From Candidatus Merdisoma merdipullorum (GTDB lineage Bacteria; Bacillota; Clostridia; Lachnospirales; Lachnospiraceae): a DNA stretch of 64,000 nucleotides. Location of the stretch: positions 38,391 through 102,390 of the forward strand of contig DVLE01000082.1 in NCBI GenBank assembly GCA_018715645.1, in the 5' to 3' direction. Shown here piece after piece: positions 22,882 through 26,015 of this stretch (its first letter is position 1; each line of letters begins with the position of its first letter). The notes under the pieces are model-generated. The model worked only from the letters and a program-made list of their open reading frames with translations, did not search any database and was not told where the DNA came from. The translations under genes and the position numbers were made by a program.

Positions 22882-23422
22882 ATGTCTGACACATTACTGG
22901 AAATCAAAGATTTAAATATTGTATATAAGACGGATGAGGAGACTGTCCATGCGGTGAATGGAATCCGCCTCCGGGTAGGTACGAAGGAGACGCTGGGGCT
23001 GGTAGGCGAAACCGGAGCAGGAAAGACGACGACAGCTCTGGCAATCATGCGGCTTTTGCCGGACAGAATCGGCAAGATAGAAGGAGGAGAGATTCTCTTT
23101 GACGGAAAGAACCTTCTGGAATTGAAGGAGAATGAAATGCGGGGCATCCGCGGTCAGGAGATCGCGATGATCTTTCAGGATCCGATGACCAGCCTGAATC
23201 CTGTGCTGACTGTGGAAGATCAGATCCTTGAAGTTTTGAAGATCCACAATCACAGCAACCAGAGCAAGGAAGAGCTGGGAAAGCGTGTCGAGGAAATGCT
23301 TGAGCTTGTAGGAATCCCTGCCGTTCGTAAGAGCTGTTATCCTCATGAATTTTCAGGAGGAATGAAGCAGAGAGTGGTGATTGCCATGGCCCTGGCCTGC
23401 AATCCCAGACTGCTGATTGCGG
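22882..23422 (+). pseudogene. DppD-like ABC ATPase, truncated at Walker B
   Basis: GETGAGKT, FQDPMTSLNP and FSGGMKQR present; homology stops at RLLIA (expected LLIADEPT) and the ORF runs into an unrelated tail ending at 23526. Confidence 0.8.
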
Positions 23423-24001
23423 CTGACCGACCAGACGCTGCCGAATCCGGGAGCAGACGCGGTGGATACTCCGGAATACGATCCGGAAGGAGCAAAGGCC
23501 CTTCTGGCGGAGGCTGGCTATCCTGACGGTTTCTCTACGACGATCTATGTAAGAGAGGACTACACGAAGAAGATCGGCAGCATCATTCAGAGCCAGTGGA
23601 AAGAGATTGGCGTGGACGCTGAGGTTCAGGTAATGGAGCGCGCGGCTCTGCTGTCTGACATTAAGGCAGGCAACCTTACCTGCTATACGGTTGGAAACGT
23701 AAGCATGACGCTGGATTCCACCTTCCTTCTTGGAACCCTGACTACCTCCAATATTCCGGATTCCAACATGACCTTCTACTCCAATCCGGAGTATGACGCG
23801 ATTGTAGAGCAGCAGGCGAATACGGACGACGAGGCGGAGCGTCTGGAGCTGGTAACGCAGGCGCTGAATATCGAGGCCCGCGACGTGCCGAGAATCAATC
23901 TGTTCTACATGGTATCCAATATCGCGCACAACAAAGATCTGAACTGTAAGGTCTGTGCGGCCCTGGAGAGCTACAACTGGTCTGAATGGTCCTGGAACTA
24001 A
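23417..24001 (+). pseudogene. C-terminal fragment of a DppA/family-5 substrate-binding protein
   Basis: YDPEGAKALLAEAGYPDGF, IQSQWKEIGV, YSNPEYDAIV...DEAER; no signal peptide, RBS or N-terminal ~60%. Confidence 0.8.
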
Positions 24002-24067
24002 GAAAACGGACAGACATGGACGTCTCTCTTGTAAGAGACGATGAAGGATAACAGAATACTGAAAATG

Positions 24068-24111
24068 AGATACGCCTTTTGGAATCCGAAAAATCCAAAA
24101 GGCGTATTTTT
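24068..24111. terminator. Bidirectional intrinsic terminator
   Basis: ATACGCCTTTTGGA/TCCAAAAGGCGTAT 14-bp stem; T-run on + strand, CTCATTTT on - strand. Confidence 0.8.
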
Positions 24112-24207
24112 ACAGCGCCAGCCGCCGCGTGTTCACGGGATAATTAAGTGTGAGACCGGACACCGGCGATACGGGCGAACCGCACTCCTCCCCGGAACTG
24201 GCGCTGC
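24112..24207 (-). ncRNA. Candidate stand-alone structured small RNA (family not recognised)
   Basis: TTGTCA(24240-24235)-17 bp-TATAAT(24217-24212) on - strand; ends pair as GCAGCGCCAG/CUGGCGCUGU; internal hairpins; followed by the terminator. Confidence 0.65.
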
Positions 24208-24292
24208 ATTTATTATACTGCGCTTCCTCTTCGTTGACAAGGGGAGATGGCGCCTCTGCCGACGCAGAATGTGGATTATGTCTGATAAAAAA

Positions 24293-24321
24293 TTGACTGA
24301 ATTTCTGATCATTGGTATTAT
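24293..24321 (+). promoter_or_regulatory. sigma-A promoter of the response regulator operon
   Basis: TTGACT-17 bp-TATTAT with extended TG. Confidence 0.6.
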
Positions 24322-24416
24322 GTTAGAAGATGAATTTAGACGGCCGGAGGCAGTCATATCCCCACAGGAGAGCGTCCGGGCAGTAATTCCGAAAAAGCAG
24401 GAGGAAGAAGGAAAGC

Positions 24417-26015
24417 ATGTATACAATAGTCATCGCAGATGATGAGACAGAGCTTCGGCAGGCGCTGATCCGAAGAATTGACTGGGAAAGCGTAGGCTTT
24501 CAGGTAGTCGGAGAGGCGGAGAACGGAATCGAGGCTCTGGAACTGGTCGGAAAGCTGGAGCCGGATCTGCTTTTGACAGATGTGCGGATGCCGTTTATGT
24601 CCGGGATTGAGCTGGCCAGAGAGGTAAGAGAGATACGTCCTACGATGCAGATCGCGTTTTTAAGCGGCTTTGATGACTTTACCTACGCGCAGCAGGCGAT
24701 TCAGTATAATATTATCAGTTATATGCTGAAGCCGATTTCTTCGGAGGAGCTGACTGAGGAGCTTCGGAAGATAAAGAAAAAAATAGACGAGCGTTTTGAG
24801 GAATTTACGGAGCAGAGAGAGGAGAAGGAGCAGCAGAACCTCGCGCGTTTTCTGATGCCGCTCTTGCTGGACTCCTTCCAGAACGGAGCGGATGCCGCAA
24901 GAGAGAAGGCTCTGGAGGATGAAGCCGTGCGCCTGGGCTTTTTGAAAAATGCAGGGAGCGCTATTCATTATACGGTGCTTGTGACTAGCTTCATGGACAA
25001 AACTGGGAATAACTGTACGGATGAGACCAGCGCCGGGGCCGTACATCAGGTGGTGAGCCGGTATCTGCGTCACGCGGGTTTTTTCTGCAACGGCCGGGTG
25101 GTTTCCCTGTTGGCGGCCACTCAGGGAGCGTTGGATAAATACTTGCACATCATCGTAGAAGACATTGTACAAAGTGTGCAGAGAATCCTTGGCCTTTCGG
25201 CTGTGATCGGCGTCAGCAGGAGCGCCTCTGCACTGACGCACTGCCATGAGGCTTACGTGGAGGCTGTGAACGCCGCGAGCTATTCCAGGAGCAGTGGTGG
25301 CGGCGTGTACTTTATCTCCGACATCGAACGCGTGAAGACCTTTGATCAGGAGACGGTTCAGACGGCCGTCGGAGAGCTGGAGAATCTGGTCCGGAGCGGG
25401 ACGGCAGAGGAGCTGGAGGATTGTCTGAAGAACTATTTTCGCAAAATGGAGCTGGAGGAGGCTTCGCCTGCCATCATACAGCTTTTTTCCGTGCAGTTAT
25501 CCGCCGCCGTGTTCCGGGTGGTGTATGCGGTAGCCGACACGGAGGCTGCCAGAAGCTTTCAGCAGGAAATGCCGATGCAGAACCAGCAGCTTTTTGAGGA
25601 TGTATATGCAATGGAAGGGGCTTATCTGGAATTTTGTCTGGCAGCCAGAGAGCTCGTTTCAGAGTACAGACAGAAAAGCGGTTCCATTATCTGCGATAAG
25701 GCTCTTGCGCTGATTGAGAGCCGTTATATGGATCCGGGTCTTTCTCTTTTGGCGATCAGCACGGAGATTTCCGTCAGTCCCAATTATCTGAGCGCGCTGA
25801 TCAAGCGTTCTACAGGAAGCACCTTCGTGGATCTTCTGACACGCAAGCGGATCGAGACGGCCAAAAGGATGCTTCTTGGCACGCCGATGAAGATTCGGGA
25901 GATTGCCGAGAAATGCGGATACAACGATCAGCACTATTTCAGCTATTGTTTTAAGAAATACGAGGGAATTTCCCCGAATGCATGCAGGAGACAGCATGAA
26001 GAACAGAGGGCTTAA
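24417..26015 (+). CDS. YesN-like response regulator (REC + AraC HTH)
   Basis: IADDE, DLLLTDVRMP, YMLKP; C-terminal SPNYLSALIK...IAEKCGYNDQHYFSYCFKKYEGISP. Confidence 0.93.
   Translation: MYTIVIADDETELRQALIRRIDWESVGFQVVGEAENGIEALELVGKLEPDLLLTDVRMPFMSGIELAREVREIRPTMQIAFLSGFDDFTYAQQAIQYNIISYMLKPISSEELTEELRKIKKKIDERFEEFTEQREEKEQQNLARFLMPLLLDSFQNGADAAREKALEDEAVRLGFLKNAGSAIHYTVLVTSFMDKTGNNCTDETSAGAVHQVVSRYLRHAGFFCNGRVVSLLAATQGALDKYLHIIVEDIVQSVQRILGLSAVIGVSRSASALTHCHEAYVEAVNAASYSRSSGGGVYFISDIERVKTFDQETVQTAVGELENLVRSGTAEELEDCLKNYFRKMELEEASPAIIQLFSVQLSAAVFRVVYAVADTEAARSFQQEMPMQNQQLFEDVYAMEGAYLEFCLAARELVSEYRQKSGSIICDKALALIESRYMDPGLSLLAISTEISVSPNYLSALIKRSTGSTFVDLLTRKRIETAKRMLLGTPMKIREIAEKCGYNDQHYFSYCFKKYEGISPNACRRQHEEQRA

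Follow-up and report, generated by a model that had tools for sequence, protein, structure and literature searches.

An apparently undescribed family of small structured RNA genes in Lachnospiraceae and their phages

The DNA analysed here (the window) is a stretch of 64,000 nucleotides (nt) from the genome of Candidatus Merdisoma merdipullorum (GCA_018715645.1; contig DVLE01000082.1, positions 38,391-102,390 of the forward strand). On the minus strand of this window, between two plus-strand genes, lies a short element that an earlier note, made from the sequence alone, had proposed as a free-standing RNA gene. Comparison with its homologues demonstrated a covarying four-way junction, a promoter at a nearly fixed distance, a patchy distribution within the Lachnospiraceae and full-length copies inside viral contigs. 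We consider it highly probable that the element encodes a genuine structured non-coding RNA (ncRNA) of an undescribed family. Taken as a whole, the best explanation of the data is a stand-alone RNA gene of about 96 nt belonging to such a family, and to this reading, with the mechanism proposed below included, we assign a probability of roughly 60%. In its fixed promoter, its compensated fold and its lack of a conserved reading frame, the element is a predicted stand-alone structured ncRNA gene of the generic kind.

Fold and gene unit of the RNA

Support for a perfect four-way junction of helices P1-P4 comes from 49 distinct sequences. Two alignments were used: alignment A1 was made with MAFFT and RNAalifold, and alignment A2 (49 sequences) was fitted to the covariance model. 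In A2, 95.7% of the cells are paired, and for 23 of the 33 base pairs both partners have changed. This alignment has a covariation score of 0.49; shuffles gave 0.18, and the same structure slid by 1-3 columns gave no more than 0.12. The independent alignment A1 returned essentially identical helices, with 18 of 33 pairs compensatory, and compensatory changes are present in all four helices. The earlier description of a compact multi-junction RNA therefore holds in so far as the RNA is structured, with the pairing and compensation just given, while its internal fold is a four-way junction unlike the one sketched.

The closing helix P1 was correctly anticipated at the predicted start; it is a covarying helix of 10 base pairs (bp) which starts 5 nt past the -10 box. 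Across the family it measures 9-11 bp, with changes on both sides in 8 of its 10 modelled pairs, and the distance from its first to its last base ranges from 94 to 117 nt among the 49 distinct homologues. The following segment had been taken for a GGGGAGGAG tract. The letters are there, yet they form more than a tract, namely the 4-bp hairpin P2 with a GNRA-type loop. The stem of P2 varies as UCU/AGA, as UCCU/GGGG and with a paired insertion (UUUCC/GGAAG). Its loop reads GGGA in 44 of the 49 sequences and GAAA and GCGA in one sequence each, which are all GNRA loops. In two sequences, the window among them, it reads GGGGA, which could imitate a GNRA loop by flipping out a base, in the manner of GNR(N)A pentaloops. 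A pseudoknot or switch pairing of GUUCCGGGA with UCCCGGGAAC was considered and rejected, as its 5' side is constant while its 3' side varies, and the GAAA and GCGA variants suit a GNRA hairpin. The third helix, P3, is the GUGCGG/CCGUAU hairpin of the earlier note, which proved real and conserved.

The long arm P4 was drawn differently in that note. The hairpin GCCGG-UGU-CCGGU is not a conserved fold; both of its halves belong to the 5' strand of P4 and pair with bases located 3' of the AU-rich stretch. Among relatives, GCCGG is replaced by GGAGG, UGCGG and the like, each matched by a change on the 3' side. From the junction outward, P4 consists of a U.G pair, five strongly covarying pairs (CGCCG/CGGCG), a bulged G, the segment GUGU/ACAC, a bulged A or GA, the outer helix CCGG/CCG(U)G and an end loop. 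The GUGU/ACAC segment is nearly invariant, reading GAGU/ACUC in two sequences only, and the outer helix covaries over 4-5 bp. The AU-rich stretch is indeed unpaired, as had been stated, and its place is the end loop of P4. Within this loop a U (44 of 49 sequences), a C (48) and an A (46) toward the 5' side and a C on the 3' side (49) stand out in the column counts, which makes the loop a candidate recognition surface. An all-against-all column scan of the alignment for extra tertiary pairs yielded alignment-shift artefacts only.

Folding energy and G.U pairs were compared between the strands. On the minus strand, a 143-nt stretch that includes the RNA folds at -68.5 kcal/mol (z = -6.6 against shuffles). 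The plus strand of the same stretch also folds well (z = -6.0), and therefore fold energy alone cannot choose the strand. The minus strand is instead fixed by conserved G.U pairs, which would read as A-C mismatches on the other strand: a U.G pair is kept at the base of P2 in 49 of 49 sequences and at the base of P4 in 43 of 49, and a G.U pair within P3 in 37 of 49.

The promoter reported earlier, TTGTCA-17-TATAAT on the minus strand, is present (24240-24212) and agrees with the consensus at 11 of 12 positions. Promoter-like sites are not above chance in the region by themselves, with 3 found against 1.7 +/- 1.5 expected; the significance of this one lies in the conservation of its position across homologous loci rather than in the match alone. 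In 50 of the 53 homologous loci, the modelled RNA is preceded at 2-7 nt by a -10 box that has one mismatch or none, and a TTG is mostly found 17 nt further up. At the other end, a U-run occurs no more than about 22 nt past the closing helix in some 30 of the 53 loci, and sometimes directly abuts it. The transcription unit is, as far as comparative sequence can define it, the structured RNA itself, because the promoter keeps a fixed distance and a U-run follows the closing helix. The 14-bp terminator hairpin of the earlier note does follow the RNA in the window; it is bidirectional with a better T-run on the plus strand, and it is not conserved among relatives. This hairpin (24107-24070) is primarily the terminator of the upstream plus-strand gene and is usable in both directions. 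The coordinates of all features are collected in Table 1.

Table 1 Features of the RNA gene and its immediate surroundings (positions in the window)
Feature	Position	Strand	Remarks
-35 box TTGTCA	24240-24235	-	TTG at 17-nt spacing recurs in most of the 53 homologous loci
-10 box TATAAT	24217-24212	-	17-nt spacer from -35; box with at most 1 mismatch recurs in 50/53 loci
RNA proper, 96 nt, first to last P1 base	24207-24112	-	covariance model R1: 101 bits
P1, closing helix, 10 bp, encloses 76 nt	24207-24198 with 24121-24112	-	starts five bases past -10
P1 5' strand (GCAGCGCCAG)	24198-24207	-	pairs with 24112-24121
P1 3' strand (CUGGCGCUGU)	24112-24121	-	pairs with 24198-24207
P2, 4-bp hairpin UUCC/GGAG, loop GGGGA here	24185-24197	-	compensated stem changes
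P3, hairpin UGCGG/CCGUA, loop UUCGC here	24170-24184	-	loop 2-28 nt in relatives
P4, long arm	24122-24169	-	changes on both sides in 9/14 pairs
P4 end loop, 17 nt here	24139-24155	-	16-22 nt in the family
Terminator hairpin, 14 bp	24107-24070	both	three bases beyond P1 3' strand; better T-run on +

Distribution and genomic contexts in bacteria and phages

With each genus represented by a single genome, a BLASTN search of 200 genomes from the family returned about 20 real matches with 71-90% identity. These matches cover the core only, and the flanks of the homologous loci are unrelated. The covariance model R1, built from 20 sequences, found the RNA at full length, once per genome, in 22 of 151 genera of Lachnospiraceae and in 11 of the 28 other species of the window genus, and no copy in 140 genomes from other families of the order or in 146 genomes from other families of the class. 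When species-representative genomes were scanned with a 17-mer, GC-rich phyla contributed many chance matches, and all of the matches confirmed by the model bear Lachnospiraceae-type names. Confirmed carriers include Enterocloster citroniae, Parablautia intestinalis, Acetatifactor, Marvinbryantia, Cuneatibacter and uncultured Lachnospiraceae. Among cultured strains, E. citroniae DSM 19261 has its copy in NZ_JBEPLZ010000032.1, and P. intestinalis is represented by D8-82.

The RNA gene is accessory and patchy even inside a single genus. Within the window genus it occupies three non-syntenic chromosomal sites (two syntenic groups and the window's own site), and the window shares the RNA but none of the flanks with either group; several 99%-complete genomes of the genus lack it. 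A comparison with empty sites gave no readable insertion borders, the response regulator of the nearest relative being preceded by a different, recombinase-like gene. In that relative (G523) the open reading frame (ORF) before the response-regulator orthologue ends, as judged by eye, like the C-terminus of a tyrosine recombinase, and the region upstream of the response regulator may be an insertion hotspot. A search of sequencing records listed no RNA run that contains the stretch. Four other runs were compared with it; they consist of contigs, probably derived from DNA, and several short ones from the same samples match the core at 24118-24204 only and then continue into unrelated flanks; other community members therefore carry their own copies of the RNA. 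In another genome (G146) the few bases past the 3' end of the RNA are followed by a run of N, either a scaffold gap or masked sequence.

No gene accompanies the RNA across its sites. The 133 neighbouring ORFs fall into 157 Pfam families, none of which occurs in more than three, and no conserved ORF clusters flank the homologous loci. The chromosomal neighbours are unrelated housekeeping genes, such as those for PFK, Spo0A, adenylosuccinate lyase and transporters, and in one carrier the RNA sits between infC and thrS. Downstream neighbours lie on the same strand in 19 cases and on the opposite strand in 19, while upstream neighbours do so in 31 and 17. A search of 1.2 kb around the loci for conserved ORFs of at least 25 amino acids (aa) found none besides frames over the RNA itself, which occur on both strands. 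The ORFs that overlap the RNA have no Pfam match, and no reading frame is kept because of insertions and deletions in the P3 loop (2-28 nt). With a promoter at a fixed distance and neither a neighbouring gene nor a small ORF conserved, the earlier proposal that the RNA has its own transcription unit is borne out.

Model R1 also finds full-length copies inside IMG/VR viral contigs. In a 47-kb viral contig, the RNA lies at 28.98 kb, with genes for a portal protein, the large and small terminase and a late-type regulator on one side and a methyltransferase gene interrupted by a group II intron on the other. A primase gene and a radical-SAM gene flank the RNA, at 17.4 kb, in a 57.7-kb viral contig that has direct terminal repeats; in a third it stands beside helicase, methyltransferase and HNH genes, and in a fourth a tape-measure gene is 0.9 kb away. 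The RNA opposes the flanking operons in three viral contigs, those mapped on both sides. The phage copies share sequence from the -35 box to about 10 nt past the RNA, beyond which their flanks diverge, and the same promoter-plus-RNA unit recurs with different flanks in the viral stretches L215, L217 and L179/L203. This pattern suggests that the unit from promoter to 3' end behaves as a self-contained phage cassette of the 'moron' type. BLASTN in its distant mode against plasmids and deposited phage genomes gave no match.

Several further observations concern the viral contigs. In G347 (L215 11965-13834, minus strand) a group II intron, recognised by the Rfam D1-D4 and D5-D6 models, and its reverse transcriptase lie in or beside a phage gene for a DNA methyltransferase, at a distance of about 4 kb from the copy of the RNA in this contig. 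A tRNA gene accompanies the RNA in two phage contigs, Gly-CCC (L216 1445-1515) at 1.2 kb and Leu-TAG (L217 3209-3281) at 5 kb. In G352 (L177 9190-9269, minus strand) the promoter is present and the RNA copy is cut off inside the P4 end loop; its missing 3' half is absent from that 34.7-kb record. The truncated copy may be a recombination scar.

Identity, proposed mechanism and competing explanations

No Rfam 15 family reached its gathering threshold anywhere in the 64-kb window. When the threshold was relaxed to E <= 10 over positions 23950-24450, the core was touched only by trivial hairpin matches on the terminator, and the phage copies of the RNA had no Rfam match. The suggestion of a possibly new family is upheld by this lack of a match in Rfam 15 even at E <= 10, by SRP and 6S RNAs that lie elsewhere in the genome and by the negative tRNA search described below. 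The sequence words of the RNA were not found in the literature searched, and two surveys from the Breaker laboratory mention no Lachnospiraceae or four-stem motif. The family appears to be undescribed in Rfam 15 and in the literature searched, the coverage of which is incomplete; as a kind it is familiar, being an orphan structured small RNA.

A number of known RNAs were considered for the locus and rejected. The earlier note had set aside signal recognition particle (SRP) RNA, tRNA and 6S RNA, and rightly so. SRP RNA is essential, has one copy per genome and binds Ffh with the loops of its domain IV. The bacterial SRP models (Bacteria_large_SRP, RF01854, and 4.5S) have no match at the locus, and a full-length SRP RNA scoring 183-194 bits is found elsewhere in the window genome and in four carriers. 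6S RNA is rod-shaped, measures about 180 nt and imitates an open promoter with its central bubble; the RNA here is a four-way junction of 96 nt, and 6S RNA (RF00013) was found elsewhere in all five carriers. ARAGORN found no tRNA, the arm in the anticodon position has a loop of 2-28 nt, and there are no junction linkers. Type I and type III toxin-antitoxin RNAs were dismissed on the grounds that there is no adjacent conserved toxin-like ORF, the gene is single-copy and repeats are missing. A riboswitch or other cis-acting leader does not fit the mixed orientation of the neighbours and their unrelated Pfam families, and in the window the next gene converges on the RNA.

Comparison with known systems places the RNA among several kinds of small or structured RNAs. 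The RNAs YrlA (bacterial Y RNA) and tRNA-like RNAs share with it a length of about 100 nt, a long end-closing helix and a cloverleaf-like outline of four arms. Unlike them, the RNA here has no T-loop, no 7-nt anticodon loop, no unpaired junction linkers and no Rfam match, and a Ro/TROVE gene (PF05731) is missing from five carriers, four of which are at least 96% complete, while control genomes gave matches. The C4 RNA of phage P1 and the CI RNA of phage P4, which act in immunity, are phage-encoded small RNAs (sRNAs); C4 is in Rfam and does not match the RNA here. The raiA motif RNA (PMC10861870) is similar in several respects: it has a promoter and a terminator of its own, is tied to no particular gene and combines a covarying multi-helix fold with conserved unpaired nucleotides. 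It measures about 200 nt and is widespread in Firmicutes and Actinobacteria (PMC10861870), whereas the RNA here is about 96 nt long, has a single four-way junction, is confined to part of one family, is accessory and phage-borne, and shows no sequence or model similarity to raiA. ROOL and GOLLD are RNA-only cages of 0.6-0.8 kb (PMC12286853). They too are structured RNAs common to bacteria and (pro)phages, and a tRNA gene lies 1-5 kb away in two of our phage contigs; the RNA here is eight times smaller and is without a model match. The phage sRNAs and 'morons' reviewed in PMC12197685 likewise are small and are transcribed from their own promoter against flanking phage operons; a phage copy here lies between DNA-modification or replication genes and genes for a late regulator and packaging. 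The known examples pair with adjacent phage transcripts and, unlike the RNA here, are not known to be shared as conserved chromosomal genes across host genera.

We propose the following mechanism. A sigma-A (housekeeping-type) promoter would start the transcript at the first base pairs of P1, and transcription would stop at the shared terminator hairpin in the window and at the U-run after the closing helix in many relatives. The RNA would then fold into the perfect four-way junction, with G.U pairs at the junction. Docking of the GNRA loop of P2 on the bulged G and the GUGU/ACAC segment of P4 is probable; it is proposed because the P2 loop lies about six base-pair steps from the junction, and the P4 bulge and GUGU/ACAC are six pairs out. 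Such docking would clamp the arms side by side, lock the fold and expose the conserved far end of P4. Most likely, the RNA would act in trans as a folded particle bound by a protein or other macromolecule rather than by controlling a neighbouring gene, as is usual for RNAs of such architecture; this role of a folded binder is put forward tentatively, at odds of about one in three. A part in phage-host dealings is plausible in view of the patchy, mobile and phage-linked distribution. In a more speculative version, which we regard as improbable, the RNA is an accessory RNA-only conflict factor, a cassette traded between Lachnospiraceae chromosomes and temperate phages that acts without a dedicated neighbouring protein gene; it would, for example, serve as a decoy for, or inhibit, some protein of the host or phage on which immunity, late gene expression or defence depends. 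If that were true, the RNA would be the first tertiary-structured RNA 'moron' of its sort.

Several points weigh against this reading. Alignment A2 was fitted to the model, so the modelled pairs are favoured in it, although A1 backs the same helices, and kinship among the sequences means that the comparison with shuffles overstates significance. The start of the RNA, placed at about 24206-24204 in the first pairs of the closing helix, its end and its abundance are all deduced. The docking is based on geometry and invariance, and the single GAAA and single GCGA variants occur without a matching change in the receptor. The partner protein was sought by gene neighbourhood, and none was found. The conserved P4 loop could equally serve as a base-pairing seed. 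As for novelty, the first 200 of the 408 supplementary files of a catalogue of human-microbiome candidates (PMC8040213) do not contain the sequence words of the RNA, and the family might be in the remainder.

UCCC-motif sRNAs of Firmicutes, of the RsaE/RoxS type, resemble the regulator envisaged in a different explanation, which we judge unlikely. In it, the structured body would be no more than a stable scaffold, and the conserved C/U-rich end loop of P4 (U-C-A ... AUCCC) would act as a seed, blocking the translation of host or phage mRNAs by pairing with their G-rich ribosome-binding regions. A stand-alone unit with promoter and terminator and no fixed neighbour would suit such a riboregulator, as would an unpaired loop of 16-22 nt in which some positions hardly vary and whose 3' side resembles AUCCC in most members; known phage-borne sRNAs, moreover, mostly work by pairing (PMC12197685). 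Nevertheless, the loop varies by subtype (UCUCACAC, UUCAAAC, CUCAACC; UCCC to UUCU or UUCG) so that no single long seed is kept, part of the 'UCCC' is taken up in the last P4 helix, and pairing sRNAs are typically less elaborate than a four-way junction that is stabilised by a GNRA loop and contains an invariant stretch of helix. No target was found, and no search aimed at one was made. The same GNRA loop and invariant helix segment, along with conserved bulges and fixed junction G.U pairs, are typical of small catalytic RNAs and of protein-free aptamers for a small molecule or ion. That the RNA is one of these is quite improbable: no known ribozyme or riboswitch model matches it, few conserved unpaired junction nucleotides remain once P2 is counted, an expression platform and a regulated downstream gene are both missing, and the patchy, accessory nature of the gene is unlike that of core catalytic RNAs.

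Explanations which tie the element to its site fare worse than the stand-alone RNA gene that we prefer. A leader or attenuator, or an antisense RNA or roadblock to read-through between flanking plus-strand genes, could be suspected from the position of the RNA, antisense between co-directional genes in the window, in the thrS/infC carrier and in phage contigs, and from the terminator-like look of a terminal helix followed by a U-run. Such a cis-acting or antisense element is nonetheless very improbable, given that neighbour orientation is mixed, neighbour families are unrelated and no minus-strand gene lies downstream in the window, and a local antisense role would not need 71-90% identity across genera while the flanks diverge. 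We see hardly any likelihood of a DNA-level feature, namely a phage attachment site or a mobile repeat that folds by chance. The RNA does lie at or near the contig end in several viral contigs, one viral copy is cut off inside the P4 loop and one contig has an integrase at its opposite end; yet integrases are not adjacent, the lost half of the cut copy is not elsewhere in its record, and the RNA is internal in two complete phage-type contigs. Furthermore, there is one copy per genome without repeats, chromosomal copies stand amid housekeeping genes, and compensatory changes and strand-specific G.U pairs reflect selection on an RNA fold. As to a chance fold, an artefact of the plus-strand terminator or a short protein gene from the GTG after GGAGGA, the terminator does serve the plus strand and the GTG opens a frame of 13 codons, but the comparative data (53 homologous loci with covariation, no frame kept, no Pfam match) refute these and leave them with practically no probability. 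What is left of the probability falls to minor rivals and to mechanisms that have not occurred to us.

Lachnospiraceae are among the most abundant gut bacteria of humans and animals, and their RNA biology is nearly unexplored. The accessory, phage-linked distribution of the RNA hints at phage-host dealings, where RNA-only factors are rare. Its fold is well supported and looks crystallisable, with a four-way junction, a GNRA loop and a candidate receptor, and because the RNA is small, covaries strongly and has carriers in culture (Enterocloster citroniae and Parablautia intestinalis), it is directly testable. Even if its function proves modest, the family merits a library model so that the locus is no longer annotated as empty.

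Surroundings of the gene in the window

The RNA unit lies in a gap of 415 nt on the contig. The plus-strand gene upstream of the gap, which ends at 24001, is a fragment of a solute-binding protein, and the plus-strand gene that follows, starting at 24417, encodes an AraC-type response regulator. The downstream neighbour of the RNA in the window converges on it, and no minus-strand gene lies downstream. Within its own genome the stretch is single-copy and free of repeats.

Two plus-strand ORFs before the RNA (22882-24001) look like gene remnants. One of them is a 214-aa piece of an ABC ATPase. In the second, of 194 aa, similarity to a family-5 solute-binding protein is confined to the final third of that protein (positions 253-364 of the 368 in the profile). 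On the other side, a promoter-like sequence on the plus strand (24293-24321; TTGACT-17-TATTAT with the TG of an extended -10) lies about 95 nt ahead of the response-regulator start. It stands back to back with the promoter of the RNA, with about 50 bp between the two -35 boxes.
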